Shown: positions 6,227-54,469, counted from the first letter of the stretch. The stretch: 55,413 nucleotides of DNA from Prorocentrum cordatum (GCA_963575745.1 CAUYUJ010000162.1:62001-117413), one strand, 5' to 3'. The notes: generated by a model not told the origin, from the letters alone. Translations and numbers: made by a program.

Positions 6227-8661
6227 GGCAAGAGGGCACGGGTATCAGTGCGCCCCCTCGCGCCGATTCCACCCGGAAAAGAGGGGCAGCCGCTTGGGCC
6301 AGAGGCCGCGGTGCGCGAGGAGATTCGCGCCCCCGCGAAAGGCCTGCGCGTCGGCCGGAAGAAGTATACAACAACACGGAGTAGGATTAACCAACCACCA
6401 GCGATAATAATGACTGGGGAGAAGAAACTTCGGGGGTCGAACGGGGATAGTAATGGATTGTCGCGGGGAAGGTAAGTTATGATGCTTAGCGGGGAGTGGA
6501 CGCTCAGCGCGTTTGATGCTGTTGCCAGTCAAAATGAGATGATAACAACTTCGATTCGCAACTTCCCAAGTGGATTATAAAGTTCGGCCTCCGCGCCCAT
6601 CTCCACAATAAAACCCTGTTGAACGGAGGTGAAAAAAATAGAGGGGGGTAAGGGGGGTAGGCTTTATCATCGCCCGTGGTGGGTTATGTTGCTCACAGCA
6701 TACTTAAGGACCTCATCCCAGCAATCATTTCGAGCACCAAGACAAGTATCGAAACAATGTCGAACAAATACCGCTTCCCAGGGCCCGACACATGCCCCCC
6801 CCCCAAGTTTCGGTTCTCGAACTTCTTTCTGGTGTTCAGGGCGAAAGTCGGATTGGGCTCAGGCCCTCCCAGAAAATAACAAGACACTGCAAAAGCGAAT
6901 CGGTTCTTGGAGTAGTAAGGCGCTCGAAGTAGATTGGGCTCTGGGAGCCCAGAAACATATACTTTCAACGACTGACGTGTGGTCAGCGGGGGGCACCAAT
7001 ATGGGAACAAGACCAGGATGCCAAACAAACGCGGCATATACACAATCTCGAGGGTCTTCACAACACACCTGCTGATGGCAAACCACCCTAACTCTGGAGT
7101 GGTGCTAGAAAAGAGCTCTAAGACGCGCTGGGCATCAGGCTACCGAGCGGGAAACAGAGCGTTCAAAATGAGGGACGATGAATGCCCTCGCTTTGTGAAA
7201 AAAGCTAGATGGAGCCGCTACGAAACATGCGAGATGCCCAGTGCGGCCGAAACGGCTGGCACTGGACACAGGCAACACAGGCGCTGCCAGGCCCGCGTGG
7301 CGTTGCCCTCGAACGGGAAACTGGACCGTGCCAGCGCGTTGGACCCGCGCGTATGGCGGGAGCGTGGGGAGCGGGTTGGGGCGGGGAGCCATTTGAGGTG
7401 CTGGCGGAGGCCGGGGCCTCCAGAGCGACCACCGACGCGCCCTCCACCCGGGGCCACAAGGGCGAGTGGAGAGACCCGCAGCGGCCTTCACCCACGGGGC
7501 CCGCGGCGCCCGGGGCGAACGAAACCACTGCGAGCTGCGCCGGCGGCCACTCCAGAGAGCTCAGCCCGCCGCGCAGCGGCCTCCAGGCCGCCCGGACACC
7601 CCCAGAGCCCGGCGTGGCGCTGCCATATGCCTGGGGGGCAGCTGAATTAGAAACTGTTCAAGCATTTGGAGCAGAGCGGGAGCGCCTGCTCATCCCCCCA
7701 TCTTGGGGTCACCGCTTTCGACCACTAGGTTTGCCTCGCCCGGGAAAAGGGCGACCCGACGCGCCCGAGCTCACGCCATGAAGGGGAGCAGGAGGGTGTG
7801 GTCTTCCGCGTCGAGGGTCTTCACAACGATTCCTTGGATCTGCGCTGGGTCCCCCCACTGGCAGCGCATCTGGCGCCGCCCCTGGCATCCAAGACCCCGC
7901 ACCAACCCCCGAACGACCCCCCCGTGACTGAATCGGAGATCCCCCGCCTGCTCACTCTTTCCCGCCCTTCTACCACCTCCTACTCCTCCTCCAGAGGCAA
8001 CCAACATGTACCGAAACCGCTTCTTCCCAGACCTGTCATGGTGTGCTTTCTGATCCGAATTTCGAAGCGAATCCATCGGTAGCGACAAGAGCCTCCCCAA
8101 AGGCCCGAAACGACGAAAACGACGGCAATGTAGGGGTATCATAACCATTTCCTCCTACTCCTCCTGCCCTCCCAGAATGAGGAGAGGGGGGACGGCAGGG
8201 TAGGGGTATCAGAACCCTTTCCTTCTACTCCTCCTGCCCTCCCAGAAGGACGAGGAAGGGGGAGATGATGACGGAGAGAGGGAGGAGGAGGAGGAGGAGG
8301 AGGAGGAGGAGGAGGAGGAGGAGGAGGAGGAGGAGGAGGAGGGGAGGAGGAGGAGGAGGAGGAGGAGGAGGAGGAGGAGGAGGAGGAGGAGGGTGAGGGG
8401 GAGGAGGAGGAGAACGAGGAGGAGGAGGAGGAGGAAGTAGAGGAGGAGGAGGAGGAGGAGGAGGAGGAGGAGGAGGAAGGTTACGGAGAAGGAGGAGGAG
8501 GAGGCGGAAGAGGAGGAGGAGGCGGAAGAGGAGGAGCAGGAGGAAGAGAAGGAGGAGGCGGAGGAGGGGAAGAGGAGGAGGACGAGCAGGGGGAGGAAAA
8601 CGAGGAGGAAGGCTACGGAGAAGGAGGGGGAGGAAGAGGAGTAGGAGGGGAGAAGGAGGAG

Positions 8662-11600
8662 CATTGAGCATTGAGATCCCCATTGCGAGTGCAAGAAATG
8701 TGTTCTTACAGCTGCTCATCCTCCAGTGGTCGCCTCTGGCCGGCGGCGCCGAGGGACTTAGGAGGCAAACCTGCTGCAATACGATTGAGATATTCCCGGC
8801 CTGTACGGGCGGGGCGGGTTGCTTATCAGCAATGGCCCCGCACGAACCGCAGAACCAGATACGGAGAACAGAATGGAAGTTCAGGAAATGGGAAGGGTGT
8901 AGCCAGACCCCCCGCAACATGGATCCGACCACCGACAAGTGGGGAGAACAAAGTGCCGTCGACATTGACTAGATCAAAGCACCTCGCAGCCTGCCACTCC
9001 TGGGCGGTGGAGGCAGACGCAGAACCAAAACACCTGAGACACTTACGTTGGCACTCCGTGAGCCTATGAGCCGCAGCAGCAGCAGCAGCAGCAGCGGGGC
9101 GGGGCGGGATCGGGGGAGGAGGGGTTTCCCCCTCACTTGTCCTATCCTTGGCTTCCACGGCTTTATCTTGCTCGGCTTTAAAGACATCGAGAGTGGCCCG
9201 AAGCAGTCTCATACGCACGAGCATAGCACGGTGCTCCTGCAAACGGACTTCCTGACACATAGACACAGGAATGCGGGCGACCTGAGCCGCGGCGTCAGCC
9301 AGACTATCTGCAACCGTGTTCGCAACAACAAGGGCACTGCGAGATTTGCCCGCAACAATGTCATGTTCAGACTGATGGATCACGAATACGGGCCCACAGG
9401 TCGGCGTCGGGACCAGTGGGCTGTTCAAACTCGCGGGTATACCATCCCGCGGCAAGTGACTCAACTCAATAATATACAATAAAATAGTGTACTGTAATGC
9501 TAGGAGGAATGCACGAATCTCCCCCCTGGCAACAACCTGTCGGCCCCCACTGATGGGGCCCCAAGATAGACGCCCTAAGGGACAACGGGGCCAGAGAGAT
9601 AAAGCAGGCTATCGCAAGCCCTGCGCGTCGGGGCCTGGGCCATGTGGACTCAGGCCCCCCCCAGACGCGCCCCCCGCAACTAAAATGGGCTCACTCGAGG
9701 CCCCCTCGCCCAAGCAGCCCTCAGACAACCCGTCGAGCCCCTGGAGGTGCCACCGGTCCACGCGAGGAGCCTCGGGAACTTGCGTCCACCGTTGGGACAA
9801 GAGACCTCTAAGCCAAAACCCTTCATCACTCTCACAGTGGGCAACGGCGGCTGGACCCAAGTGGGCCCTAGCCTCACATGCTGGTGATCCCTCATTCTTC
9901 TCGCGCTCCCAGTATCGGTGCAGCAGCGTCTCGGGCGCCACGCCGCACCGGTCGCAGCAGAGGTCGCCCGCGCATCGCGCAAGCTGCTGCTGCTTGCGCT
10001 CCTTGGGCCAGCACCCTCCCGACGCAACTGCTGCCACCGTGCTCGCAAGCTGGTGGCCGTGTGGCGTATTCTCGAGCTGCTGGATGAGGCGCTGGTGCGA
10101 ATCCATGTCCACTCCCCGCCCCAGGCCTCCACCTCCGTAGCGGTTGCAAGCAGAGGCCCGGCGGGCACGTGTGAACGAGGCCTCCAAATCTCGCAGTAAG
10201 TTGTCATGGACGTCGCGGTGTCGATCCCCCGTGTAGGACTCGTCGGGGAACTCCCACTGCTCAACTCCACCATCGCCCGCGGCATAACTCCAATTGCGTG
10301 GGATGGTGTGGGCCCCAGCCTGCCCTCATAAGTGCGAGGATTACCGCTGCCTGGGGACCCCGCACGTGGCGGGCTTGGTCCGCAGCTGGGAGCTCATGCA
10401 TCTTGGCATAGATATTCGGCCACACCGCGGTAATGCCTCGTCGTATATCAGGGTTGCCTCTCCACGTGCGAAGCCAGAGGTCTACCAGCTGCACTGGGAG
10501 TCGGATCGCGGGATCACGACGCGGAGACTGCAGGTCCAGCGCCGTGGTCAAGCATCGCCCGCGGTTCTGTGCTGAGCATGCTTGAACCAGGCGTCGTCTT
10601 ACCAACTGGAGGTGACGACCAAATGCCCCGTGAATAGTATGTCCGTAAAGTCCAGCAGGTAGGCCCCCTTGCATCTGCAGCTTGGCCATCGCATTGTATT
10701 ACCTGGAAGCGCGAGTGAACCGTCTTACCATCACCGACGTCGTCACATGCTTCTGTTCCCGCAGGCGTCGTGTGCTGCGAGCGTGGCAACCGCGCCCGAA
10801 ATCCACTCCAAGGTAGGCGGCCTGCGGGACTCCACACACAACATCGCCCCTACACATGACCGCGCGAACAATGGCCTTAGTGTCCGCCATCTTCGTCTTC
10901 ATGACAATCGCCTTGGGTGAGACTTTTTAGGCCTCTGGCCTCCAGCAACCGGCAGGTGTGCACGACGCAATCGGTGATATGGCGCACAATGGCCTTGCTG
11001 GGTCCAGTCATACTTTGAGATAGGTCGTCCACCCACAGCCTGTGTCCAAGGCGAGGATGTGCAACAGTAATCTTCATCATCGCAACATGCGTGAGCACCT
11101 TCGCAAATCTTGTGCCGCTTCGAAGCCCCTGTACCACCGAGCGAGACGGCTCGAAGGTCATGGTGACCGTACCTGATTGCTCCAGCGCTCTAGGCGATAT
11201 GCATTGGGCCAGCTCGAGGTACAGCACAACTGCAGGAAACTCGAGTCTTAAGGCCGCCTGAACCAATGCTGTCCATGGTATCGTACCATAAAATGCTTCA
11301 TTATCTAACATCACATGGCCATGTGGCATGGGTGCAGGCGTGGGCCACTTTTTCATCCACCGCACGTAGGAAGGCCTCCTGGAGGCAAGAGTTGCCTCTG
11401 ATCGCAACGTCCCAGTCCGTGTGATGGTACTGGGCCCACTCCTGCACGTGGGACTCGCGTGTCAAAGACCAGACCCGTCCCAACATCGATATCATACCAA
11501 TGGCCCTGTCAGCTCCACTCTTCTTGGGGGTGAGTGTCCCCAAGATAAGTTGAGTCTGAATCGGCCACGTCAACGTATACTCGATCGCCGAGAGAAAGAG

Positions 11601-12513
11601 GGCCACTTCTTGCTGTTCCTCCTGTGGAAGTCGCTGGAAGTCAACTGGTGTAAATGCGTCAGCACTTAGGCCTGGGGAGGCTTTCATCTTGGCACATGCT
11701 GCGTCAACCATGTCGGGTGAGATGTCAGGAAGAAGATTATCCGTAGCAACCGACTGGATCTGCCAGAATAAATCACGATGCATGTCAAGATCAGGTTGCA
11801 CAGGGGCCCACGGAGCCTTGAAAGGCAGCACCTTCTCATCCATGATGTCACGAGGATGGAAAGCAGCCCTCTGTGGAGTAACATGTTCAACACCTGGGGG
11901 CGTCTTGGGCTTGAGAAGCCTGTGCAATATTTCGTTGGCTGTGGGTTCCTCTACCCACTTCTGAAAATCTCGAATCGAATTGGCATTCGCTTGTCTCTGG
12001 GTGCGCTCGGCCACCCGTCTGGCACATCTCTCCCAAGTCTCCAATACCACCACAGGTGCTTCAGCCCCTGGTGCCAGCAGATCGTGCCAGCACTGCCAGG
12101 GAGGATCTTTGTTGGGTCTCAGCACCTGGTGGGCCTGCTCTGGTACTTCACGAAGTAATGTGTGACAAGCTTTGCGATAACCTGCTAGTTGGACATGTCC
12201 ATTATCCCGTTGAACATGGCGGAGAATTCCCGCCAGCACAGTAAGTAAGCGTGTCTACCATTGGGCTCGGACGTCGTGCAAGCGCATCTGGCGCTTGTGC
12301 GTAACCACATGCACCGGCCGTTCACGGAGCTGGGGGCCGTACGCCCTCCTTGTGCCAGTCAGCTCCTCGCCATGGTGTCTGCTGATAGCACTCTCAATGG
12401 TGGAAGCGAGGCGGGCATACATACCTGATCTTGTGGCGGAGTAAGTTTTTTTGAGCCTAAACACAATGGAAGACAGCAGAGGAGGATGGACATATTGTAA
12501 ACAAGTGGCCCCA
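8662..12513 (-). mobile_element. Decayed, 5'-truncated non-LTR retrotransposon (LINE): RT, CCHC knuckle, RNase H and C-terminal Zn-finger motifs
   Basis: Fragmented minus-strand ORFs carry RT motifs (LDNEAFYGTIPW, SVVQGLRSG, LWVDDLSQ, YLGVDF), a knuckle CDRCGVAPETLLHRYW, an RNase H end (VANTVADSLADAAA) and WFCGSCGA. Several stops and frameshifts. Confidence 0.9.
10877..11407 (-). pseudogene. Reverse transcriptase core of the LINE
   Basis: QG motif and YADD-equivalent WVDD. Frameshifted from both flanking ORF segments. Confidence 0.9.
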
Positions 12514-13621
12514 GAGGAGGAGGAGGAGGAGGAGGAGGAGGAGGAGGGGGAGGGGGAGGAGGAGGAGAAGGAGGAGGAGGGAGAGGAGGAGGAGGAAGAG
12601 AACATGAATCATGTTACGAGAAGGAGGCCCAGGAAACGGAAGAGCGAGGTACGCGAGGAGTGGACGAGGGTGAGAAGGAGGAGAGGAGAGGAACGAGGAG
12701 GAGAGGAGGAGGAGGGGAGGATGAAGAGGACGAGAAGGGGAGGAAGGAAAAAAGAGGGAGGAAGGTTTTTTTTAATTACGGGAGGACGGTTGGTAGGGCC
12801 CGGAGGAGGAGGAGGAGGAGGGGAGAAGGAGGAGGAGAAGGAGGTGAGAGGAGGATGAGGAGGAGGGGAGGAGGAGGAGGATGAGGAGGAGGAGGAGAGG
12901 AGGAGGGGAGGGAGGAGGAGCACGAGGAGGAGGAAGAGGAGGAGGAGGAGGAGGAAGGGGGGAGGAGGTGGGGGGAGGAGGGGGAGGAGGGGAAGGAGGA
13001 CGAAGGAGGAGGCGGGAGGGGGAGGGACAGGAATGGGAGCGACGGGAGGAGGGTAGGAGGAGGGAGGGAGGAGGGGTAGGCAGGAGGAGGAGGTAGGAGG
13101 AGGAGGAGGGGAGGAGGAGGATGGAACGGAAGAGGAAGGAGGAGGGGGAGGGGAGGGCACGAGGAGGGGAGAGGAGGAGGAGGAGGAGATGGAGGAGGGG
13201 AATAGGAGGAGGAGGAGGAGGAGGAGGAGGAGCGGAGAACGGAGGACGAGGCCACGAGGAGAAGATGGAACGCAGGTGGAGGAGGGGAGGAGAAAGGAGA
13301 AAGGGGTGGGAGGAGGAGCGAGGAGGAGGAGGGGGGGGAAAGGTGGGCGAGGAGGAGGAGGGGGAGGTGATGGAAGAGGAGGAGCAGGAGGAGGAGGAGG
13401 AGGAGGAGGAGGGGAAGGTGATGGAAGAGGAGGAGGAGGAGGAGGAAGGCCAGGCGCCAGCTCTCCCCGAGATCCCTTTGTCCGCCTCGCCACGCGCTCG
13501 ACATGATGGGCGAGCTCCGCCCATCCCCACGGGGCCTCGGGTCGCCCGGGGGACACCGACATGTGACGGGCCCAGAATCGGAGTCGACGACGGGGGCGAA
13601 TAGCTGGTGGGGACAAAATTA

Positions 13622-13818: not shown

Positions 13819-15096
13819 GAAATACATGTGTCCAGGGTGGCCACTGATCCATGTCTTCGGCGAGGCTGCCGGGCGAATGCGCGTCATGCCCGCCCCCGGG
13901 CGATTCGCCCTCATCGTCGCCGCTGCATCGTCGCCGCTGACAGAAAAAAAAAAAAATAAAAAAAAAAAAAAAAATAAAAAAAACGGGCGGGCGAGGGAGC
14001 CCTGTGTTGTTTTGTTGTTTTTTCCTTTGTTGGTTTCTTTGTTTTGTGTTTTGTTCTTGTTTTTTGTCTCTTTTTTGTTTTTTTTTTTTTCAGATAGGGG
14101 TGGACTTCCTCCAGGCATGGGGCCCTGCCCACTACCTTCCCGTGCAGCTTTTCACGCTAAGCCTCCCCTCCCCCCCTCCCCCCTCCACCCCCCCACAACC
14201 CCCCCCCCCACCACCCCCCCCCCCCCCCCACCCCCCGCTCCCCCCGCATCCCAACCCCTTTCCCCCCTCCTCCTCTCCTCCCTCCTCACTCCCCACCCCC
14301 CCCTCTGGCTCCTTTTCCTCACTCTCACCTCCACTACCGCCTCTCTCTCCGTTCCCACCATCCTCCTCTCTTCCCACCCCCCCCCTCAACCTCCCTTCCC
14401 CTACCTCGGTGCGGGTCCTCCTCCTCCTCCTCCTCCTCCTTCTCCTCCTCCTCCTCCTCCTCCTCCTCCTCCTCGATAGGAGAGGCTCGGGAGAGTTGGC
14501 GGGCTCTGCGCATCGCAGCGCGCCGCGGGGCTGCTCAGCGCAGCCGATCGACCTCCCCTGGACCGCCGGCCCCAACTCCTCGCCTCTTGTCCCTCCATCG
14601 TGCCGTCAACCTCCCGTTGCCACTCCCGCCCCCCGCCCTCACAAGACCCGACGGGGCTATATGTCCTCCTCCTCCTCCTTTCTTCCTTTCTCCATACTCC
14701 TCCTGTTCCTCTGCACGCTCCTCCTCCCTCCTCCGCCTCCCTCCTCCTCTCCCCCTCCTCCTCCTCCTCCTCCTCGTCCTCCTCATCCTCTGTTCTCCTC
14801 CACCCCCTCCTCCTCCTCCTCCTCCTCTCTTCCTCCTATTCCTCCTCTCCTCCTCCTCCTCCTCATCCTCCTCCCTCTCTTCCTCCTCCCTCCTCCTCCT
14901 CCTTCCTCCCCCCCTCCCCCCCCTCCTCCTCCTCCTCCTCCTCCTCCTCCTCCTCCTCCTCCCCCTCGAAGGAGAGGCTCGGGAGAGGTGGCGGGCTCTG
15001 CGCATCACAGCGCGCCTCGGGGCCGATCAACCTCCCCTGGGCCGCGGGTCCTAACTCCTCGACGTGTCCATCCATCGTGCCGTTACCCTCCCATGG

Positions 15097-17164: not shown

Positions 17165-18106
17165 GCAAAGTCACGACAAGTCCCTGCAGGGTCCCGGCAA
17201 GTTCGGGTCGGGACTGCCGGAACTCCTGGGCGCGGCCCTGCATGGGGGGCCTCCCGAACGCCCCAGGAGCCGGCGGTGGACAAACCTCCCTTTAGCAAAC
17301 CTCCCCTTAGTGAAGACGGCCTGGGACCGAAACCGACGGACTGGGACCGAAAACGGCCTTAGTGAAAACGGCCTTTAGAAAACCTCCCCTTAGCGAAAAC
17401 GGCCTTAGTGAAAACGGCCTGGGACCGAAAACGGCCTGGGACCTGCAAAAATGGCGGCCGCGACGCCCTCTGGCGAACCGAGCCCCGACGCAGCCCCATC
17501 AAGGAAGGCGCCAAACACGTGGCAGGCCCAACGGCCTCAGGCCAAGAATGCTCCAGCCCAAGATGGCCCAAGTCGGTTCCAAGGCGGTACGCACGAGGCG
17601 CTCAAGACGCCCCAGGAAGGCTCCGAGAGGACCCCGGGTGTGCCCGAGGAGGCAAAGTTCCTTGATTCTGCTATGGTTGGAAAGTTTGGTGTTGCTGCCT
17701 CTTGAAACTTCCGACCGTCAAGGACGGCCCAAGAGGCCCCCGAGGTCGCCCCAAGGTCCCCCCAACCCAAGAAGCTCCCAGGACGGCCCAAGAGGGCCCC
17801 ACGACGGTCCAACCTGCGCTCCGAGAGGGCTCAGGAGGACAGCCCTTCAGCCCGGGTCGTCTTCTGACAGCCCCCGGGCCCGTGGAGGGCCCCGAAACGG
17901 CGAGACACCTCAGGACCCTCTCCCTCGGGATCGTTTTTAAAATAAAAAAAGGACCCGGGGCACTCTGGGAGGGGACCCAAGTTGGGAAGGCCGAAAACAT
18001 CAGGGATAAGGGCTCTCTGAGTCAAACCGCCCCCAGGCTTATGATCCCTAGTGCGAAGGCGGGGACCTCAGTGAGGCAACGTCTTCACAGTGGTATTGGG
18101 TTAGGG

Positions 18107-35945: not shown

Positions 35946-36105
35946 GGGCCACTGCGTGTCGCAGCCGCTCTGCTGCCGTCGCCACTGCTGCTGGTGCTCG
36001 GGGTCGCCGCTGGGAGCCCCACGCCCGGGTGAGCCGCCACGTTCCCGCCGCCCGTGCCGAGGCGAGAGATCCGGCTGGCGAGCAGCCTGCAGCCTGCGCC
36101 TCGCT

Positions 36106-39290: not shown

Positions 39291-39427
39291 CCAGGGGGGC
39301 GGGTGTGAGGTGAGGCGGAGGCGGTCGAGTCACAGCAAGAAGCCCATTTTAGGACACGGTGAATGCAACGAAGAGACATACGCACTCCGAGAGCGGAGAT
39401 CCTGCCTCAAACTCTCACGCCCCGATA

Positions 39428-39600
39428 CAGTCAACCCGTGCAGTAAGGTTGCTCGGTAAGGATGCAGGGGTCTTGGACGCCCATTTCGAAGCCTTTCGAG
39501 CGGGGCGCGGCCAACGAAAGTGGCGAAGGATAGACCGATGAGGCAAGCATGCAAGGGTACGCTTGGGAAAGTTGCCCATCCTTACAATGCGGGTTGACTG
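39428..39600. mobile_element. Tc1/mariner-type MITE (family D), TA TSD
   Basis: TA|CAGTCAACCCGTGCAGTAAGG ... CCTTACAATGCGGGTTGACTG|TA. Confidence 0.85.
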
Positions 39601-39636
39601 TAGCCTGCTTGAGCGACCTCCGCTATCCGACAACGG

Positions 39637-39751
39637 TTAAGTCAGTCAAGAAATAGTCGGGGGACTATTTGTTTGTTTTTACTATGTTCGACAATTTTGA
39701 ACTTTGGGTCTTTTGTCTCAAACCCGCCTCTAGGAGGACATGCCCGACCTA
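39637..39751. mobile_element. Internally deleted MITE family A
   Basis: ttaagtc ... ggacatgcccgacctaa. Flanks GACAACGG/GGCGACGG. Confidence 0.65.
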
Positions 39752-41891: not shown

Positions 41892-41982
41892 CTGCGATGT
41901 GGTAGCTGTGCTGCCGCCTCCCGAGGAACACCACGCTCATCGCGCAGACGAAGATCACGATCGTCCCGCGGCACATCTGGGC
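41892..41982 (-). CDS. SLC35F6: SLC35F6-like transporter internal exon: AQMCRGTIVIFVCAMSVVFLGRRQHSYHIA(G)
   Basis: CAG|G acceptor and CAG|GA non-canonical donor, 91 bp. Matches the family motif recalled as QMLRGAVIIFTGLFSVAFLGRR. Confidence 0.82.
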
Positions 41983-43339
41983 CTGGAGGCCCCGCCGTCG
42001 CTGTCCCCCCTGCCGTCTTTGTCCACCACCATCCCTTCCCCCTCTCTCTTCTCCAATCCTCCTGACCCCGCCCCCCTCCCCCCAAATTCGAGTTGGGGAT
42101 CGACTACATAGTTGATTCACCCCAGAATGTGTTTTTTGTTCGGTCGAATGTACGAACAGAAAATGTAGATGTCGAATGTTCAGTAGCTCTACTGAGTCTT
42201 GCTCGCAGATTCGACGGAAAAAGAAAGTTCGGGGTAAATCCAGTAAGTAGTCGATCCTTGAATCGACACATCGCACATCTCGTCCCCCGCTTCGGGAACC
42301 CCGTGGCGTTCTGCCCTGCTCGGGGCTTCAGGGCGGCCCGGGCCTCCTGCCACGCGGGCTGACCCTGCCTGTTCGGCCTCGCGGCTCTCACAGGAGGCCG
42401 GCTGCGCGAGTGCTGCGATCCCTTGTCCCTCCTCCTCCACGATCGCATTTTTTAATTCGCGGCCGTCACGGGCGTGATGGGGGGAGGGGGGGGGACGGGA
42501 GGGAGCATGACCTAGCGCGCGCCCCCCGCCCCCCCCCCACCCAGACTGTGGTCAGGACGCACTGCGGCAGCGCTGGGGGCGCACTGATGGGGTGGGAGCG
42601 TTACGCTATGGGGGGGGGCAGGGAAGGGGAGGGATACTGGAGACGCGCGTGATGGCCCAGAGGGTAACGAAAAAAACGCTCTCGAGGAAAGCGGCTCCTG
42701 GACCTCAGGGCCTCCCCCTCAGGGCGAGCTCCTCATTCCTCCTGCGGCGCTTGCTGACAGTCCCGGGGCCCACGGAGAAACCCGGGAAGCCAGAAACGGC
42801 GAAAAACCTCAGCACCCGCTTCCCTCGGGGCCCAACTCCATGGCATGGCGAGCCCCCGCTCCTCGCCTCCCCTCCTGCCTGGCCCGTCCGACCCCGCGCC
42901 CGCCGCGCTGAAAAAAACACCGCCCCGGGGCGCAGCCGCACCCGGAGGGTCCTTCCCGCCTCCTCCTCCTGCCGCCTCCTGCCGCAGGCCACCTCCCCGT
43001 GATCCTGCTCCTCCTCCTCCTCCTCCTGCTCCTCCTCCTCCTCCCCTCGTTCCCTCTCTCCCCCATATCTTTCTCCTCCAGTGGTTTCTCGATCACAATT
43101 CGGGCTTCCGACGGACGTGTGGGGCGAGGCGAGAGCCCCTGGGAGCGCTCCCAGGCTGGGACACGACGAACACCTTCTAAGAGGCCCAAGAAGACAAAAA
43201 CGAGGGATGGGTAACGGTATCGGATCCCATCGATCCCTCATCCTCCTCCCCCTCCTCCTCCTCTTCCTCCTCCTCCTCTTCTTGCTCCTCCTCCTCCTCC
43301 TCCTCCTCCTCCTCCTCCTCCTCCTCCTCCTCCTCCTTC

Positions 43340-45697
43340 TCGTCCCCCTCGCTGCAAGGTTTGCGGTAGTGTGCATGGTTGATGGGGTGGAGGTTGCCAC
43401 CTTTTGTGACCGCGTTGGGTCCCTGGGGGCCCAAACCTCGGGGGCCGCTGAGCACCTCGCCGCAGTCGCGGCAGGCAGGCTTTCGCCTCACGTTGACAAT
43501 ATTTACTCGGATTATTAAGGGGTGTTGCAATTGCACGGCGAGGCTGGATACCCTCGCCGTAATCAATGATCTGGTTGTAAAATGCTCGCGGGCGGAGGCT
43601 GTTTTGACCTCGGCCCCAAACTCCCGAAAGTCAAGGCTCACCAAAATCTGGAGATGCTGCCCCCCGATAATGAAGAGTTCCGTTTGGCCAGCGGCAACGA
43701 TGCCGCAGATAGGATTGCCAAGGCCGCCGCGAACCTTGGCAATCAGCCCAGTCACGACGAAGTAGAGCAGTATCAGAACGACACTGCCCTGCCTAAGAAA
43801 TACATTCGATATGTGTGTCCAAAGCCCTTGGAGAGTGGCCCGCGATAGCCCCTCGTCGTAACAAGGCGCTGGCCAAGCCCGTGAAGAGCCTCTCCCCTCC
43901 TTGGGGGGCTGCCTCGGCCTTGGCCTCCTAGGACCCTGGGGCCCCGCCGTCCGTTCCTCCCCCTCCGCCTCCTGTGGCCCCTCGCGTGACCCCGAGGGCC
44001 CACGTCTGGGCGATAGTGAATGGCCAGCGCCGATGCACGATTTGCCGCATCCGAGTCCGCACGTTCAAAGCATATGAAGAGCGATGCCGAGCAATGGACT
44101 GTCCTGGAGACTGCCCCCAGATGTCCAGCCTTGCCTCCAACCCTAGGGGGCATACTTTATTCTATTATGAGCGCCTCGACCAGCCAACGAATTTCTTGGT
44201 GTGCCATAAGTGTGGTTCCTTAAAGGAAGGCAATTCGCAAGGTTTGTCTGGCGATTGTAATTTGAGACCGCCCCATAATGGGGCTAAGCTGCAGCTGCAG
44301 AGAGCACAGTCTGGCCGTCACCCCAAGAGTGCCGCCGTCAGTCCGATTGTGCTCAGTCTCCCTCCCGTGCCGCTGGCACAGCTGCTCAGAGAGGCAGCCC
44401 GAGCCAGGCAGGAGGCCGCCCCGCCCTAGAGGACAGGTGGCCCGAACTCATCAGCCTCAACTTTGCTCTAGAGTCCAGACAGGCCCACACCATGGACGAG
44501 GCTTGCCCACCCTCCTGGCGTTATTTACACCAGGGGTGGGCAGCGCCGAGTCGTCCCGCCGTCGCCTAGGGCACTCTGCGTACGTGTGCGTGTGTGCGTG
44601 CGCGCGCGGCCCCGCACGCGTGTCAGGCACCCCGACCCAGGGGGAAGGAGCGCTAGACATTCTGTCCTTTGCGGCATGGTGCTGCAGCTGCGCCTGGGCC
44701 CGCAGCAGGTTCGATCTGGGGTGTTGTTTCGTTCTGCCTGGCGGTGCTGGTGACGCGCAGCCAGCACTGGTACCCGAGCCTAGGGTTTCCGCCAGCCAAG
44801 CGTGGCTGGCCGTCCTTTTCACTGCAGTGTGCTGTTTGGCGATACCTCGTTGCACGGCCGTGGAGCCCGCAGGCCCCTCCACGGTGACAGTGGCACAAGG
44901 GGCGCCCCCGAGGGTTCTAGGCACGGGGGTGGCGTTGGGCTGCCAATCCACCCCGACTGTGATGCTCAGCCCCACCTTTCCACCCCCCGCTCCAGTGCGG
45001 CGGAAGAATGCAACGCCGTGGCTAGGTGTGCAAACGCCACATCAGGGCCCATCCGTGCACTTGTGCGTGTGTGCGTGCGCGCGTTGCCCAGCACGCGTGT
45101 CAGGCACCCCGCTTCAGGGGGAAGGAGCGCTGCACACTCTCTTCTACGGCACAGTGCTGTATTCTGCCTAGGCCCACTGCAGGTTTCGTTCTGGGGTGTG
45201 GGTTCGCCTTGGCTGGCGGTGCTGGTTACGCAGCCAGCCCTGGAACCCGAGCCTTGGTGTTCCGTCCCGAGCCTTGGGGTTCCGTCAGTCAGGCGATGCC
45301 TAATTCCCCCTTGTTCACTGTGCGAGCTGTTTGGCGTGACCCTGTTGCACAGCTGTGGAGCGCCTGGTGGCGCCCTCCACGGTGACAGTGGCACAGGGGG
45401 AGTCCCCGTGGGTTGTCTGGGCACGGGGGTGGATTTGGGTTGCCAGTCCGCCCCGACCGTTGCTCAGCCCCACCCCTCCCCCCCCGCGATCGTGGGCGGA
45501 GGAGGTAAGGTGCTGCTGCGGCTAGGTGTGCAACGCCACATCAGGGCCCAACACCTCGTTCAGCGTCGGCAGCGTTCTGCCGTCTCAGCGGCCCCACCCT
45601 CGGCCGCTGTGGAGAATATTGGTGGCCCAGTGCCACGAGGTTTCGGGTTAGGGTCGGGTCGGCAGACCCCTAGCATCCCTCTTAGCCAAGAGAAGGC
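43340..45697 (+). mobile_element. 5'-truncated LINE remnant: RNase H, Zn-finger motifs and long 3' UTR
   Basis: QTSGAAEHLAA, IYSDY, KVKAHQ, GNDAADRIAK, then CTIC, CHKCG and GRHP, with stops and frameshifts. The 3' UTR contains a ~490-bp tandem duplication. Confidence 0.85.
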
Positions 45698-47085
45698 CCT
45701 CCTCCTCCCCCTCCCCCTACCCCTCCTCCTCCTCCTACTCCTCCTCCTCCGCCTCCTCCTCCTCCTGCTCCTCGTCCTCCTCCTCCTCCTGCTCCTCTTC
45801 CTCTTCCTCCCACATCCTCCTCCTCCTATCCTCCTGCCCCATCCTCCTCCCCCATCCTCCTCTCCCACCCTCCTCTCCCATGTTCCCCCCCCATACCTCC
45901 TCCCCCATCCCTCCCCTCCTCCTCCTCCTCCCCTCCTCCTCTCCTCCCTCCTCCTTTCTCCTCCGCCTCCTCCTCCTCCCTCCTCCTCCTCCTCAAAACA
46001 AACTTATCCTCGCCCTCCTCCTCCTCCGCCTCCTCCTCCTCCTACTTCGCCTCCTCCTCCTCCTCCTCCTCCTCCTCCCCCTACCCCTCCTCCTCCTCCT
46101 ACTCCTCCTCCTCCTCCCCCTGCTCCCACCATCCCGCCCGCCCCCCTCTCCCACCACCCCCCTCCCCCGATTGTCGGGCCTGATTGGAGAGGGCACGCGA
46201 GGAGGACACAGGACCCTTCCGAGGGCTGCACACTGCCGCAGGAATGTAGAAGGCACGGGTCGCGAGACACGCGACACAAGGGTGCCCTCGACTTGGCAGG
46301 GTCGATCTACCCACTAAGCAAGGCCGACTGTAAGACGAAGCCAAGACGAGGGCACATTCGGGTAAGGATACCTCGGGAATCTCTGCGATCCCGCGGCTCT
46401 GCCGGATGCATCGGGCGCCACGGTCTTCTCAGAGCGTTCTGGAACGATCTGAGAGCGTTCTGGAAAGCTCTGGGATGGAATTGTTATCGTCCTAGCCCCG
46501 TCCGACCAGAGGTCTCGAACCATTTCTCGGGACTGGTGTTCTATCTGGAAATGTTTGTTTACGGTACCGAGGCCTGGTAGGGGCCCCTAAAGGCTGAAAG
46601 TAGCGACAAAGCGTCAGTCGTGATTGTTTCACGACGCGAGGGGATCTGCGGGGCGGTTGCCTCAGTCCAGTGCTTGTAGTTGTCTCTTCCTCGCCCATGA
46701 TTATACTGGCCCTCACTGCCCTCGTCCCAGCCCCGCCCGAGCCCCCCCCCGTCGACCTCCCATCCCCTGCCTCCCCGGAGGGAAACAGGCCGATACAGTG
46801 GAGGCCAGTCCACAAGAAACCTGTCACAAGAAACCCAACCCTGAGATCCCAGGACGTCCTTTGGTGTTTGGTGTGGGAACGTCACGCGTTCAATCGCAAG
46901 ACCATCGAAACCCCAGGGCACCATGGAGGCAAGCAGGGTGTCTCTTGGCATGGGCCCCCACTGTAGGCAAGGCAGGCAGCACATACGGCGCGAGAGGACC
47001 AGAGGGGGAGCCGTGGGAGGGAGGCGGCCGTGGGAGGGAGAGGCAGCAGGGGACGCGAGGATGCCTGGGAAGGGTCCTCCTGCGT

Positions 47086-49606
47086 GATTGCAACCAAGTG
47101 TGTTTAGATTTCCTGGCGATTGGAACGCTGTGGATCACCAGTTTACTCATCATGCAAGTTCGTCGTCTTCGTTCTTCTTCATCCTCCCTTTCCTTCTTCT
47201 TCTCCCAAGGTCTTGTTGCAACGCCTTTATACAAGGATTCTTTTTGTGGTGACCTTGCCAAAAGGGTTTGATGAGTAATCGATCTGCAATGGCCCTCACA
47301 ATTAGAATCCGTTGCAGCAGCCTGTACAAAGGGATTCCTTTCGTGGCGGCCTCAAAGAGGAAGATAATATGAAAACGAGACAATCATGAACAAGCATGTG
47401 CCACAGGGGGAAATGGGGAAAAGCTAGGAAAACCTGTGACGGTCGCTATTTTTAGGGTGCTGGTGACCGAGCAATTAGAATCCTGTGTAGCGGCCTTTAC
47501 GTGTGGATCCATGTTGTGGCGACCTGACAAAAGGATTTTAAGTGTGGAGGATCTGCAACGGCCCCCAGAATTATAATCCTGGTGAAGCAGCCTGCACAAA
47601 AGGACTCCATGCGTCGCGGCCTCACGCGAAGGTTTTGATTGTGGGGGATCTGCAGTGGCGGCACCGCTGGCGCAGGGAAGCAAGAGAGGAAAACAGGAAA
47701 AACTGGACAGGCAGGAAAACGCTTGCAACCTTCACAGGGGAAGCAGGAAAACGCCAGGACAACCTGTGCACGTCGCTATTGTTAGGGTGCAGATGATCTG
47801 CAAAACAATCCTGTTGTAGCGGCGGCCTCTACAAAAAGATCAACTTTGTGCCGACCTTACGAAAGGATCTGAATTGAAATGGATCTGCAATGGCCGCCAC
47901 ACTTTGAATCGTTTCGTAGCAGCCTGTACAAAGGGATTCCTTATGTGGCGGCCTTGCAATAAGGTTGAAGTGCTGGCAATCTGCAATGGCGGCACCGTAG
48001 GCCCAGGAAAGCTAAAGAAGAACATCGGAATCAAGAACAATCAAAACACAAAAAAGCATGTGTTGTCACGGGGGGAAAAAGAAACAGCTTGGAAAATGTG
48101 TGACTGTCGCTATTTTTAGGGTACAGGTAACAAGCGATTCAAATCCTGTTGCAGCGGTCTTCACAAAAGAATCGATTTTGTGGCGACGTGACAGAAGGAT
48201 TGCAATTGTGATGGATATGCAATGGCCCACGCACTTACAGTCCTCTTTGAAGCAGGCTCTACAAAGGGATTTCTTTGGTGGCGGCCTTGCAAGGAAATTT
48301 AACTTGTGGGGAATTGCAGTGTCGGCACCGTGGGCCCAGGCAAGCTTGAGGAAGACAGGAGAACCAGGACAAACACAAAAAACATATGTTTTCACACGGG
48401 AATACAAGAGAAAATTAGGAAAACGTGTGACTGACATTACATGTAACGTGCATATGATGTACACTTAGAGGCCTGACAGAACTATTGAATTCGTAAACCA
48501 TCTGCACCTCACAAATAGCGACCATCACAGGTTTTCCTAACCTTGTCCTGGTTCCCTATGTGAAAACACTAGTTGTCGAATGATCTCCCTGTTGTTTGTT
48601 TTCCGGCTTTCCTCTATAGCGTTTCTTGGCACACGGTGCCGCCACTGCAGATCCCCCCGCAAATGAAACATTATTGTGAGACCGCCACAAAAGGAATCCC
48701 TTTGTACAAGCTGCTACAAAAGGATTCTAAGTGTGGCAACCATCGCAGATCCATCGCAATAAAAATCCTTTTGTATGGTCGCCACAACATGGATTATTTT
48801 GTTAAAGGCCGCTACACAAAGATGCTGCACCCTAACAATAGCGACATGCATCGGCTGTCCTAGCTGTTTCATGCTTTCCCACGTGACAGCGCAAGCTCTT
48901 TAATGTCATTCTTGCTGATTGTTCCAATGTTCCCCTTTAGCTTGCCTGGGCCCACGGTGCCGCCACTGCAAATCCCCACAATTAAAACCTTCTTGTAAGG
49001 CCGCCACATTAATGTAGGTATCCCGTCATAGAGGCTGCTACAAACGGATTTCACATGTGTGGGCCATTACAGATCCATCACACATAACATCCCTTTGTAA
49101 CGTCGCCACATAATGGATCTCTGTGTAAAGGCCGCTACAACAAGAGTTTAACTGTTCGGTCATCTGCACCCTCAAAATAGCGTCAGTCACACGTTGTCCT
49201 AGCTTTTTCCTGCTTGCCCCTGTGAACACACAGGCTTGTTCCTGGTCTTGTTGTTCCTGTTCTCCTATCTAGTTTTCCTTGGCCCACGGTGCCGCCACTG
49301 CAGATCCCCCGCAATTAAAACCCTACTATATGGCCGCCACAAGAAAGGATCCCTTTTTACAGGCTGCTACAAAAAAGGTTCAAAGTATGGGAGCCATTGC
49401 AAATCCTCCACAAGTGAAATCCTTTCGTAAGGTCGCCACAGAAGGAATATTTTTGTAAAGGCGTTACACAAAGACCTTGGGGGGAGAAGAAGAAGAAGAA
49501 ACGGGAAGATGAAGAATAACGAGGACGACGAACATGCATGATGAGTACACTGATGATCCCTAGCGTTCCAATCGCCAGGGAATCGATCAACAAAGCATTG
49601 TAACCA
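47086..49606. mobile_element. Foldback-type element: >1 kb modular inverted arms
   Basis: cctggcgattggaacgct...catcatgca...cccaaggtctt near 47110-47215 is inverted near 49470-49580. Internal subrepeats (gatctgcaatggc, gcagcctgtacaaagggattcc, gtggcggcc) switch strand at ~48460-48500. Confidence 0.85.
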
Positions 49607-51126
49607 TAAAACAGCGGGTCGGACCTGTAGGGCTCCTCCTCCTCCTCCTCCTCCTGCTTGTCCTTGTCCTCCTCCTCCCCCTACTCCCCCTCCTTCTCCT
49701 CCTCCTCCTCCTCCTCCCACTACTCCCCCTCCTTCTCCTCCTCCGCCTCCTCCTCCTCCTCCTCCTCCTCCTCCTCCTGGGATGGGAGGGAGGGAGGCAG
49801 CCTGGGCAGGAAAGGGGGGAGCAGGGCTGGACTGTAGAGCGGGACTCGAGGGCAGGGAGGGGAGAGCGGTGAGGAGATGGGACGGGAGGCAGCAGCACAG
49901 GAGGGAATCAGCTTCCAACCCCTCCTGCTCATCCTCGCCCTCCTCCTGCTCTCCTCCTCCTGCCCCTTCCCCCCCGCCTCCTCCCCCTCTGCCCCTGCGC
50001 CGCCCGCCATGTGAGTCTCATCAGCAGCGGGAGGCTTGGGTTCGCCAGGGAATCGACGAGGGCACCAAGCGTGCCCACATGAGTACTCGGCACCCGTCTC
50101 CCTGCAATGGGGTGCAAGTAAATGTGTCACTCCACTCCTTCCTCGTCGAGGTGTCCTCAACCTTCCGCGGACGAGCTTCGCAGAGTGTCGGACGTGTCTG
50201 CTGATGGCTATAACTGCCGTCGCTGTCAACGTCTGTGGCGACGACGTGGACGCGCCGGCCATGGCTTTCGAATGCATTGTTGCGGCACGTCGGGCCTCCT
50301 CAGCAGATCTCTGTGGCTCTTCGCTTGCGCTCCTGCCACTGCGTCTTGGCGGCTACAGGCCGACAGAGGTACTCCTAAATGATCCGACGAAAATTGGCGG
50401 CGAGCGAGGCGGGAAGTGAGAAAGAGATGGCTTCCTCAGTAGACTCGGAAGGTCCCCAGCCTCATGAGAAGTTTCTTAAGCCTTTTCCGAACACACAGAG
50501 AGCTCCTTAAAGGGCGCGAGGGCTTCTGAGAAGTCCCGCCGCCTTCTGAGAAGGCCTTCTCCTTGTCACTTCTCCTCCTCGCTCGCCGCCGAGAAAAGAA
50601 ATGGGTCTTCCTCGAGATTGTACAGCGAGCTTGGCTTACACGGGCCGCCTGCGCGGCACGCTCGATTGGCAGCGAGGGCGCTCACGCGTTACCTTTGAAG
50701 CGAGGGCGCCTACGCGCGCGACCGTACGCGGGCAACTTACGCGCCCATGTCGGCGCAGACGACCCCGCTGTTCTGCGTCGCCCATCCGACTTCGCGCATC
50801 GCGACCCTCGATGCGCGGCTACCACGGCGTCCTCGGCCGCGACGCGCAGCGCGTGATGCTCCTCGCGCCCCTGTGGGTGACCTGGTTGTCGGACACTGGC
50901 AGGGGGCTTTGAGGACGGTGTCGCCGCCGCCGTCCCCTTGCACGTGCCAGCGTCGGACATCGGACATCGGGCTGCATCATGCACCGCGTGGGTGCCGCAG
51001 GGCGGGGCCGAAGCGCCGAACAAATGCCAGCAGCAGTGAAACGAGTACAACCCCCAAGGAGACAGGGAGCGCCCTTAGCGCAATGTCATGACATACATGA
51101 CAAGGATGACAAACACACATGTCTTA

Positions 51127-51270
51127 CAATCAACCAATATAGGAAGGATGCGCGATACGGATGCAAGGGCCCTGGAAGCCCATCTCGAAGCTCTTCGAGG
51201 ATGGGCCGAGGAGGCAAGGATGCAAAGGTACCTTGGGAAGGTTGCCCATACTTACAGTGCGGGTTGACTG
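51127..51270. mobile_element. Tc1/mariner-type MITE (family D)
   Basis: TA|CAATCAACC ... GCGGGTTGACTG|TA. Shares its downstream flank with the 39428 copy. Confidence 0.75.
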
Positions 51271-51513
51271 TAACCTGCTTGAGCGACCTCCGCTATCCGA
51301 CAACGGTTAAGTCATGTTTTGTTTTTTACTAGTTCGACTATTTTGACTTTTGGGTTTGTTGTGTCCCAAATCCGCCTCTAGGAGGACATGCCGCCTTACT
51401 ATGCGAGTTGACTGTACATACGTGACCCGTGCTGGGGTGCAGGCAACACCCCGTCGGTGCAGACCTGGGCTGCTGGATCTCACGGGGCTCGGGCGGGGCG
51501 GGCCCCGAATCAG

Positions 51514-51514
51514 T

Positions 51515-51581
<67 letters not shown>

Positions 51582-51882
51582 GCATCATCATCATCATCGT
51601 CATCATCAGCATTACCATCATCACCAGCATCAGCATCATCATCAGCATCCTCATCCTCACCCTCATCCTCATCCTCATCCTCATCCTCATCCTCACCATC
51701 ACCATCACCATCACCATCATCATCATCATCAGCATCATCATCATCAGTATCATCAGCATCATCATCATTATTATCATCATCATTATTATCATCATCATCC
51801 GCATCATCATCACATTATCAGCATCAGCATCAGCATCAGCATCATCATCCTCATCCTCATCATCAGCATCAGCATCATCATC
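51514..51882. repeat. (CAT)n microsatellite
   Basis: Long CAT/CAG/CCT triplet run. Confidence 0.97.
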
Positions 51883-51981
51883 CCGTCCGAAGTGCCCTCC
51901 TGCGGGGCGTCTCCTCCTCCTCCTCCTCCTCCTCCTCCCTCCTCCTCCTCCTCCTCCTCCTCCATGTCCTCCTCCTCCTCC

Positions 51982-53752
51982 GCAGCGCTACAGAGAGCCT
52001 GGAGGGACAGGCTGGTGGAGCAAGCGAGCCAGCGACTGGGATGGGTGGAGGATCAGGTCTGCGTCTCTGCTGCCCTTTCCATCCTCCACTCCCCCTCTCG
52101 CCCTCCGCGCGAGCGCTCAATCCTCCTCGCCTTCCTTTCCCAAAGCATATGGACCAAGTAAGGTCTCAGCGAGGCAGGCTACGAAGCAGATACGAAATTC
52201 CCATGCGGGCACCAGCATGATAGTATGTACCATCGGTTGTTTGAATGTGTGCTTTCAGCTGCGGACCGCAGCGAAGACTTAAGCGTTGAAGATATAGACA
52301 CTCTCAGGACTGCCGATTGGGCTCACTTGCAGGCCGGCCTAGGAGTTAAGGATACCTTCAACAACCAGGCTCCACCAGGGCTTGGTCTGGAGGAAGCAAC
52401 GCTGTGGGCGGTTGACCCACATACCACCCCAGCCCAATCCCTGCAAGGTGAGCTGTACCTTGACGGCTCCTGTTTTAAAGACGGTCCCCAAAGTCACCAT
52501 CGAGCTGGATGGGCCGTTGTAGCTCTCGACCCCATCTCGGGCGAAGCCCAAGCGGCCCTCGCGGGGCCAGTGGGACGGAGCTTCCGCAAACGTCGCCTGC
52601 CGCCGAATATCTTGCGGCGCTCGCGGCTGTCAGATACGGCAGCAACATCACGTCTCTTGTTGCTGACTACTCGGGCACGTGCAAGCTGCACGACCCAACG
52701 TTGTCCCATAGGAATTTCTACGCTGGGATTAAGCTGTTAATTAAAGGTAGTCCAGGCTGGCATCGAGACCTCAGCCTGATTAAGGTCAAGGCGCACCAAG
52801 ACTTAGACAGTCTGGAACGCCACACCGACGAATGGAGGAAGGCCGCTGGCAATGCCGAGGCGGACAAATGGGCGAAGTGGGCTGCCAACGAGCTGGCCAA
52901 ACCCTCACCCGCCGAAGCGCAGATAAGTGAATACAGGTTAAACTTTTGCAGCGGTTCCTCAGATATGTTTGCAAGGTCTTGCCAAAGTGGCCTCCTGTGG
53001 CCTCTTCGGCTGGAGGCAAAGCTCTGGCCAAACCAAGCAAGTCAAATTCCCCTCCTGTGGGGGCCGCCGCCGCCCCAGGCTCCAAGCCCGTGCCTCCTCC
53101 CCCCCGGCCTCCCGCTGCGTCTCGGGGTGCTGGGGGTCTCCTTGTGCACGATTGGGTCTGGAGTCTGGGAGGCTGGGTGTGCAAGCTTTGTAAAACCCGA
53201 GCCCTGACGGACCATAGTAAAGAATCGAGGCTCAGTGAGAAGTGCACTGGCAGTTCTCCTTTGAAGACTCTCGCTGCAGACAGCCACGGCCACAAGCTGG
53301 TGGTTGCAGATTTTGCAACAGGAGAGAACTTTATCATTGCTTGTCAGATGTGCGGGGCTTATGCTGTCGAACCCACGTAACTTGACCTCTCCGTGCCCTG
53401 CGCATTTTGCTGAGAGTCAGAACCGTGGAGCCCGATATGCATGGCAGCAGATCTGCAACGGCAGACATCCCAAGAAGTCGGGAGTTCAGCTGAATGGTGT
53501 TATCCCTCTTGACCAGCTTATGCTCTCTTTAGCTGAGGAGCAGGAGCGGGAGGCGGAGGTGGGGCAGGAGCAGGAGGGATGAGCTCTCCTGCCGCCCGCC
53601 CGCCGCGGCCGCCAACAGCAGGCGCGCCGCTCCCGCGCGCGCCCCCCCTTGCAAAGGGTAGTGGGGCAGCGTAGCAGAGACACAGACACTGCTAAGGTTT
53701 TGGGTTGGGTCGGTTCAGCCAACCCTCAGCCTTCCTTCCTTCTTACTGCGTG
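51982..53752 (+). mobile_element. 5'-truncated LINE remnant: CCHC knuckle, RNase H and Zn-finger motifs
   Basis: PCGHQHDSMYHRLFEC, LYLDGSC, RAGWAVV, QTSPAAEYLAA, VADY, KVKAHQ, GNAEADKWAK, CKLC, CQMCG and GRHP. At least three frameshifts or stops. Confidence 0.92.
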
Positions 53753-54469
53753 CTCCTCCTCCTCCTCCTCCTCCTCCTCTTCCTCCCTCTCCTCCTCCTC
53801 CCTCCCTCCCCCTCCTCCTCATCTTTTCACTTCCATGGCCTCAGGCCGCCTGCTTGAGTTGTTCCTCCATTCTCGTCTCCGATGTCCCCTCGCCTTGCCC
53901 CCCCCTCTTCCAGAGACGGCAACGCCCCGCGTGACGGCAGAGTAGCAGCACGCGCCCGCGCGCGGCCGCCGCCCCGCACCGTCCACGACGGGTAACCTTG
54001 CGGGAGAGTCGAGCGGCCGCTGCTAGCAATCGAGCCACTAGGATTCACAAGTCGCCGCGTTTTGCTGTTCAGGTCAGAGCGCGGTGTGCGGTGTCCCTCC
54101 CCCCATCGCCCGCCAGGTATTCCGTGCCTCCGCCCGTTAGGATGAGGAGCGGAGGAGCGGTTGCAGAGGAGTTGTCGAGACATGTTGTCGGTCCACTCGC
54201 ACGAGTGTTGCATGTGCTCATCTGTCCCTTGTATGTGTACAGTCTGGATTGAACTGCTCTGGCGATCAGGGCCGCGTCGCCAGCATCGGTCCAGGACCGC
54301 CCCGCGCTTCTGTGCCGCTGCCGCTGACCTGACCACGGTTGAAGTGTAACTGTTACTGTGCACTGTTACTGTTCACTGGCTTAGGTGCCCGTGCAGAGTG
54401 TTCGCAATTAGCTCTGCCAGCTGCGTGTCCATGCTTGCTGACAGGCTTTATGCTTCAACAACGTCGCAA

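Follow-up and report, generated by a model that had tools for sequence, protein, structure and literature searches.

Sense-strand (TCC)n on both sides of three LINE remnants in Prorocentrum cordatum: a lead to a lineage that may integrate into microsatellite arrays

Three remnants of long interspersed nuclear elements (LINEs) in one stretch of Prorocentrum cordatum DNA each lie between runs of the same trinucleotide, read in the same direction, and the question raised by this locus is whether a LINE lineage lands in such runs, makes them, or merely happens to be bracketed by them. The stretch comprises 55,413 nucleotides (GCA_963575745.1, CAUYUJ010000162.1:62001-117413) and was analysed over its whole length, hereafter called the window; the remnants are named E1, E2 and E3. 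A preliminary description had listed the three remnants, a layout of reverse transcriptase (RT), CCHC motif, RNase H and C-terminal zinc finger, and TCC on both sides of each element. A custom protein profile confirmed the positions of the remnants, profile and structure matches confirmed the layout, and sense-strand (TCC)n was found at 6 of the 6 flanks. The association of these LINEs with TCC goes far beyond the dense repeat background and is real within this window. On balance we favour, with some hesitation, the explanation that E1–E3 are independent old insertions of one LINE lineage with an apurinic/apyrimidinic endonuclease (APE), which inserts into (TCC)n.(GGA)n arrays in one fixed orientation.

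The LINE remnants and their relatives

Pfam was nearly blind to these elements: among the 13 open reading frames (ORFs) of E1–E3 the sole relevant match was RVT_1 with an expect value (E) of 0.083, under the cutoff, and a custom profile was therefore needed. The 317-residue ORF of E1 at 11301-12254 (-) had 673 relatives at E<=1e-3 in a HMMER search of 1.84 billion representatives, the best of which, at 84% identity, was a transcriptome protein labelled Pyramimonas sp. CCMP1952. Among 20 relatives looked up, three carried that label and one, a distant relative, was labelled Prorocentrum cordatum, a dinoflagellate. Profile A3, with 1590 positions, was derived from an alignment of 24 long database relatives and searched against 1153 six-frame window ORFs of at least 25 residues. 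Ten ORF pieces matched at E<=1e-4; all were within E1–E3, collinear with the profile and extended to its C-terminal end, and no ORF outside E1–E3 in this set scored better than E=0.5. A fourth LINE remnant near other tracts was rejected because its matches amounted to only 0-3 bits. Metagenome contigs searched with the C-terminal ORF of E1 gave one related locus, L001, an intact relative of 452 residues, and viral contigs searched with the same ORF gave no related locus. Word-based protein searches, which covered longer proteins only, returned nothing for the E1 RT ORF or the L001 ORF.

The A3 layout consists of an N-terminal APE-like endonuclease, RT, a zf-RVT-like CCHC motif, RNase H and a C-terminal Cys/His domain. 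Relatives in the profile carry the RT motifs LIPKP..GG.R, SI.AG and VDD, and the CCHC motif reads CxRCG...H....C, with weak zf-RVT matches in 2 of 6 relatives. Pfam scans of 12 long relatives detected Exo_endo_phos in 3, RVT_1 in 4 and RNase_H in 6, and Exo_endo_phos was also present in 1 of 6 additional relatives scanned. The profile matched human L1 ORF2p (E 4e-19) and R2 (~4e-9); its positions 5-225 matched L1 endonuclease structures (E ~1e-9 to 4e-7), and positions 1193-1356 matched RNase H structures (E 5e-11). An RNase H fold was likewise seen in the AlphaFold model of L001, which has a predicted local distance difference test (pLDDT) score of 82.9 (Foldseek E 8e-8), and the E1 ORFs over the RT matched the profile at E 2e-57 to 1e-29. 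The preliminary description had called for the endonuclease to be identified: it is APE-type in the relatives (Exo_endo_phos in 3/12, together with the L1 endonuclease match), and no endonuclease is encoded by the window copies. The 5' ends of these copies fall at profile positions ~270-375 (E1), 1080 (E3) and 1220 (E2), three different starting points, yet all of them reach positions 1528-1533 of 1590. Judged by sequence, E1–E3 are thus 5'-truncated copies with complete 3' ends, as is typical of LINEs that are dead on arrival.

E1 contains the linker after the APE, the RT, the CCHC motif, RNase H, the C-terminal Cys/His domain and a 3' untranslated region (UTR) of ~50 nt, and carries at least five frame changes. 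Its homology to the relative P0012 extends upstream to 12422 (tblastn), and towards the 3' end it is 40.6% identical to L001 over 318 columns, as far as residue 445 of 452 at window position 8730. E2 matches the profile further at 1311-1366 (43570-43845) and 1393-1533 (43932-44426); its coding part runs from ~43363 to 44426, with a stop codon at 44427-44429 and a 3' UTR of 1267 nt. E3 codes from 52105 or earlier to 53579 in four frames, followed by a stop codon at 53580-53582 and a 3' UTR of 170 nt; its ORF pieces at 52162-52737, 52479-53204 and 52931-53377 matched at E 1e-9 to 5e-5 (profile 1100-1528), and the last piece, 53265-53579, is weak, with only E=0.51. Self-blastn detected no DNA similarity among the three elements, a terminal block common to E2 and E3 aside, and their ORF pieces share 24-33% amino-acid identity in MAFFT alignments. 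They are accordingly three separate old insertions of diverged members of a lineage, not products of duplication.

The C-terminal domain, specific to the clade and ~110 residues long, has nine Cys/His columns kept in 18-20 of the ~20 rows that cover it, in the order H, C, C, C, H, H, C, C, C. No Pfam match was obtained for it in the relatives scanned and no sequence match in the PDB, ESM Atlas scores were only 0.77, and its structural model (pLDDT 77.5) had no match among solved folds (best Foldseek E 0.5; best VIA Z 2.2). A role of this domain in target recognition is speculation.

Junctions with the TCC arrays

Tracts were defined as stretches in which at least 25 of 30 positions match TCC or GGA. 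The window, with a G+C content of 60%, holds 39 tracts in 55 kb, 20 of TCC (3.5% of bases) and 19 of GGA (5.0%), together 8.5%, at a density of ~1 per 1.4 kb. They are clustered by strand, the 39 tracts forming 11 same-strand runs (permutation p=0.0011), and E2 and E3 sit in one TCC block and E1 in a GGA block. All junction probabilities below were computed against this dense background. Element orientation relative to the repeat is fixed in 3/3 copies, with TCC on the sense strand. For oriented random positions, the chance of 5' adjacency was 0.032 for E1, 0.0091 for E2 and 0.044 for E3 (joint 1.3e-5), and that of 3' abutment, with a sense tract starting no more than 10 nt downstream, was 0.0039 for each element (joint 5.8e-8). 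The association is specific to the LINEs, since tracts show no excess of the other interspersed repeats of the window: of 68 such segments, 9 touch a tract, against a null expectation of 15.1 (sd 3.4).

The 3' boundaries are supported by homology and not by tracts alone, for E1 through L001 and for E2 and E3 through their common block. The distance of 1267 nt from stop codon to TCC made the E2 boundary doubtful, and this doubt is answered by the block: over their final 120 nt, E2 and E3 share 43 nt with a score of 34, compared with a mean of 15.2 (sd 2.3, maximum 26) for shuffled sequences, none of 1000 of which reached it. The block ends exactly 16 nt ahead of the TCC run in both elements, so that TCC starts at a homologous position in the two. 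A scan of the whole window for the 3' motif of E2 and E3 returned only E2 itself (E3 differs by an indel) and one chance-level site with three mismatches. The E1 3' end is not related to the end of either E2 or E3, as 380 and 497, respectively, of 1000 shuffled sequences scored at least as high. In all copies, (TCC)n starts at a defined 3' terminus, 16 nt past the motif in E2 and E3 and directly after a heptamer repeat in E1. On the sense strand, the ends read ...CAATGC (E1), ...AAGGCCC (E2) and ...GCGTGC (E3), each followed by TCC; it had been pointed out before that two of the three end in TGC, which is correct for E1 and E3 and trivial. Minimum-free-energy folds of the three 3' ends show hairpins; only two of the sequences are related, and we claim no structure.

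A public sequencing run, X1, contained many diverged copies of the E1 family, in 64 contigs, 41 of them less than 90% identical, and two further runs, X2 and X3, yielded none; these contigs are no measure of copy number or of the flanks at other loci. One X1 contig has an extra terminal heptamer at 8658 and a 36-bp deletion nearby, and continues past the E1 3' end into the tract. That heptamer number differs in another copy suggests, without being decisive, that the heptamer is the true terminus of E1 and the TCC its target. On the 5' side, homology reaches to within 25 nt (E2), 90 nt (E1) and 124 nt (E3) of the tract, and reading frames are open up to the 5' tracts. The features of the three elements are collected in Table 1.

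Table 1. Positions of the LINE remnants, their terminal features and flanking repeats, counted from the first base of the window
Feature	Position	Strand	Remarks
E1 LINE remnant, 5'-truncated	8662..12513	-	five ORF pieces, profile 375-1530 at 12254..8709, E 2e-57 to 4e-15
E1 3' terminus, heptamer repeat, sense CTCAATG/AATGCTC, 2.4 copies	8659..8675	-	Tandem Repeats Finder period 7, 100% matches; directly before TCC run
(TCC)n on E1 sense strand, 3' flank	8270..8661	-	GGA on +; tract 8270-8651
(TCC)n-rich, E1 5' flank	12507..13456	-	GAG on +; tract 12507-12603, degenerate continuation, 68% matches
E2 LINE remnant, 5'-truncated inside RNase H	43340..45696	+	profile 1219-1278 from 43363
Tandem duplication in E2 3' UTR, two ~480-bp units, 76% identity	44568..45550	+	self-blastn
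Conserved 3'-terminal motif of E2	45638..45680	+	ends 16 nt before TCC run
(TCC)n, E2 5' flank	43233..43352	+	
(TCC)n, E2 3' flank	45697..45813	+	TCC-rich onward to ~46129
E3 LINE remnant, 5'-truncated before CCHC motif	51982..53752	+	profile 1079-1120 from 52105
Conserved 3'-terminal motif of E3	53695..53736	+	ends 16 nt before TCC run
(TCC)n, E3 5' flank	51905..51984	+	
(TCC)n, E3 3' flank	53745..53804	+	
C-terminal Cys/His domain	L001 1318-1722; window 43932-44426, 52931-53579, 8709-9200 (-)		

Several further repeats lie beside the elements. The 3' flank of E1 includes the joint-longest perfect run of the window (at least 60 bases from 8281 by one count, 112 bases at 8281-8392 by another). 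A unit in which TCC switches to GGA (...CCTCCCAGAAGGACGAGGAAGGGG and then GGA repeats) lies beyond the E1 3' tract; it spans 8220-8435, recurs at 20614-20827 with 87.6% identity over 218 bp, and is locally duplicated at 8121-8263 with a 70-bp period. Upstream of E2, a 135-bp unit at 43050-43185 (+) is ~93% identical to one at 36478-36612 (-); in TCC orientation, both copies start exactly where a TCC tract ends downstream, and the similarity stops after 135 bp. One possibility is that it represents the 5' terminus of a further TCC-associated element; another is a short unit whose opposite strand carries a (GGA)n tail. At the 5' tract of E3, a 23-nt motif, CCGAAGTGCCCTCCTGSGGGGCG, stands directly before TCC at 51887-51909 (+) and again before another tract at 30233-30255 (-), two matches in the window where 0.00 are expected. 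The motif may be what remains of a severely truncated TCC-ended unit, so that E3 may have landed in the tail of an earlier element, although this is not decisive. Directly upstream of the E3 5' TCC tract runs a CAT/CAC-type trinucleotide tract (51450-51900), the frames of which read His/Ile/Ser.

The window as a whole is eukaryotic in character, with LINE remnants, many short interspersed repeats, satellites and hardly any genes that can be recognised. Apart from the LINEs, a clear Pfam match was given only by an RCC1-repeat ORF at 25841-27160 (-), the sole clear host-type coding sequence found, which has seven repeats (RCC1_2, E 6e-49) encoded by a 123-bp tandem repeat at 26094-26951 with 87% matches; a Pfam search of 98 further window ORFs of at least 110 residues gave no match at 1e-4. 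The scaffold has a gap of 100 N at 25052-25151, far from all three LINE elements. Same-strand blocks of tracts comprise GGA on the + strand at 4956-13456 and 29271-41265 and TCC on the + strand at 41457-53804, for which transcription direction, replication direction and LINE-driven seeding are candidate causes.

Other repeats are spread over the rest of the window. Its start (2-364) is a pentanucleotide satellite, (TATGC)n turning into (AGCTA)n, and repeats of 11 and 21 nt with the pattern GCCCCAAGAGG are found at two sites far apart, 1565-2081 and 17605-17812. Neighbouring runs of A (40 nt), T-rich (14005-14090) and C-rich (14162-14305) sequence occupy 13944-14305 and are followed by a unit of ~375 bp that is duplicated, at 14241-14615 and 14730-15092, with a TCC tract within each copy. 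An interspersed repeat of ~132 bp occurs four times (3305-3438, 22886-23024, 38802-38934 and 39044-39175) with 83-95% identity and shows no association with TCC tracts. At 31141-33583 and, in the opposite orientation, at 54477-55125 lies a satellite-like family whose ~370-bp units are as much as 95% identical. The region 47107-49584 is self-inverted and built of ~330-bp tandem units in opposing orientations; within it, 47515-49440 matches its own reverse complement (70.7% over 1979 bp).

Insertion into existing arrays and its alternatives

The fixed position of TCC at the 3' end fits a tail, and TCC 5' of three differently truncated copies fits insertion into existing arrays; by analogy, the simplest model for both would be the one accepted for other repeat-specific LINEs. 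According to this model, the APE endonuclease would nick the GGA strand of an array, and the 3' end of the element RNA, ending in or reading into UCC repeats, would pair with the freed GGA 3' end and so prime target-primed reverse transcription. An early stop of reverse transcription would produce 5' truncation, and second-strand joining would take place inside the same array. The arrays would be older than the insertions, and the outcome would be sense TCC on both sides with no recognisable target-site duplication, as a duplication cannot be recognised where both flanks are the same simple repeat.

A number of points weigh against insertion of this kind. There are only three copies, the elements were chosen post hoc, and the small sample remains a weakness. 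No empty site, no target-site duplication and no copy that is full-length or intact was seen, and the endonuclease is retained in 0 of 3. The 5' boundaries are verified only to within 25, 90 and 124 nt of the tracts, by which they had earlier been partly defined. Because tracts occur in same-strand blocks, orientation concordance alone has a chance of only ~1/8 and is weak evidence. L001 ends 3 nt past its stop codon and is for that reason uninformative on tails, and the heptamer end of E1 differs from the ends of E2 and E3, so that no single tail sequence upstream of TCC is common to the three. Finally, 33 of the 39 tracts have no neighbouring LINE.

If (TCC)n were only a 3' tail, templated or made by slippage, the elements could have inserted anywhere, and the TCC on their 5' sides would belong to unrelated neighbours, for example the tails of earlier, more truncated copies in LINEs stacked head-to-tail. 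Simple tails of other LINEs are poly(A) or (TAA)n, the latter found in the I factor. A tail would account for TCC at a fixed offset from the E2/E3 motif and ~50 nt past the E1 ORF, and the 23-nt motif before the 5' tract of E3 resembles the 3' end of another TCC-tailed unit. We nevertheless consider a tail by itself rather unlikely, because all three 5' junctions are at a sense TCC tract (3/3, with the joint p of 1.3e-5 given above), LINE coding sequence could not be detected on the upstream side of the 5' tracts, and the 135-bp unit ahead of E2 abuts its tract with the 5' side and not the 3' side; stacking onto earlier tails would, moreover, itself be insertion into TCC. Polypurine/polypyrimidine tracts such as (TCC)n.(GGA)n may be fragile, and an unlikely alternative is that these mirror repeats break or nick easily and capture LINE cDNA without sequence-specific cleavage, or that LINE copies simply survive longer in gene-poor, microsatellite-rich DNA while arrays expand to their ends. 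The exact abutment at 6/6 ends and the sense orientation are not predicted by such passive processes, and the other repeats in the same DNA show no enrichment at tracts. They do agree with the surroundings, as the window is rich in tracts and poor in genes (98 ORFs without a Pfam match, the RCC1-repeat ORF being the only find), and passive accumulation is the published explanation for Waldo-A and Waldo-B near CA repeats in Drosophila (PMC3812793).

With 39 tracts in 55 kb, any feature of 2-4 kb may be bracketed by repeats, boundaries may be set post hoc, and assemblers join sequences at microsatellites; block-wise orientation (~1/8) and the 100-N gap in the scaffold would be in keeping with chance or artefact. 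The junctions are exact and backed by homology up to or near the tracts, with joint probabilities of 1e-5 and 6e-8, the gap is far from the elements, and a contig of an independent run crosses the E1 3' end into the tract, all of which make this explanation very unlikely. Chance, left standing by the preliminary description, thus falls away at the level of the window (joint 1.3e-5 and 5.8e-8), and what stays of that reservation is the post-hoc choice and the small number. The proposal that the clade might explain the extreme GAG/TCC density of the region fared worse: a LINE piece is in contact with only 6 of the 39 tracts, and the window yielded no additional fragments, which leaves the generation of TCC richness by LINEs unsupported; abundant arrays that offer targets are equally consistent with the data. 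A bolder version, in which a widespread marine-protist LINE clade uses (TCC)n both as 3' tail and as landing site, every insertion leaves a fresh sense-strand TCC array that draws in the next copy, this self-reinforcing cycle could build the same-strand blocks (39 tracts in 11 runs), and the C-terminal domain reads the polypurine/polypyrimidine repeat, strikes us as decidedly unlikely.

Relation to known elements and significance

In open-access papers and preprints, we found no description of a LINE specific for (TCC)n or (GGA)n. A (TCC)n-homing LINE would be an additional case of known microsatellite-targeting behaviour, with a target for which we found no description. The R1 clade is the home of Waldo, Mino, Kibi, Koshi and Dong. 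These APE-type animal LINEs are microsatellite-specific, their targets being (ACAY)n for Waldo, (AC)n for Mino, (TC)n for Kibi, (TTC)n for Koshi and (TAA)n for Dong (Kojima and Fujiwara 2003, 2004, summarised in PMC3812793). As described there, they resemble the present elements in their APE, in having one microsatellite on both flanks in a fixed orientation, and in the lack of discernible target-site duplications. Differences lie in the target, here (TCC)n, in the host, here a GC-rich protist or alga, and in the protein, which here has RNase H and an extra C-terminal Cys/His domain. These two protein features do not decide whether the lineage belongs to the R1 clade.

Among proteins of solved structure, human L1 ORF2p gives the best sequence match to the lineage in both RT and APE. 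L1 differs in its poly(A) tail and its loose TTTT/A preference, and has neither RNase H nor such a C-terminal Cys/His domain. In the model for L1, the RNA 3' end pairs with the nicked target, which is analogous to the pairing proposed here. Dualen/RandI is a green-algal LINE with an APE, a restriction-like endonuclease and RNase H; it has in common with the present lineage the APE, the RT, RNase H and a Cys-rich region after RNase H. Unlike in Dualen/RandI, no restriction-like endonuclease was detected here, which is not an exclusion, since the C-terminal domain has no Pfam or fold match. Dualen/RandI is named in PMC4640811, which also reports that Togen, a NeSL-related element specific for (TG)n, and some HERO families home to microsatellites. 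Togen and HERO have this homing of non-long-terminal-repeat elements in common with the lineage described here, but theirs involves a restriction-like endonuclease, compared with an APE in the relatives of E1–E3. Outside the LINEs, the Penelope-like elements Chlamys and Naiad, found partly in green algae, are biased towards (CA)n, (C)n and (TA)n (PMC8557442). They, too, are algal or protist retroelements whose microsatellite bias masks target-site duplications, but they form a separate retroelement class, with a GIY-YIG endonuclease, a telomerase-like RT and different repeats. Array-forming DNA transposons with microsatellites as their targets have been described as well (PMC5907723).

As the evidence consists of three degraded copies, the finding is a lead for now. 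Site-specific LINEs show how a mobile element can settle where it does no harm, and work on them extends to their use in targeted insertion. If the explanation that we favour is true, a (TCC)n lineage in a protist or alga, with RNase H and a C-terminal domain that is uncharacterised and presumably binds zinc, would add to both the hosts and the targets known for such LINEs, and would offer a system in which to test the interplay of endonuclease specificity and 3'-end pairing. It is also relevant to the way in which retroelements and microsatellites may shape one another in very repeat-rich, GC-rich genomes.

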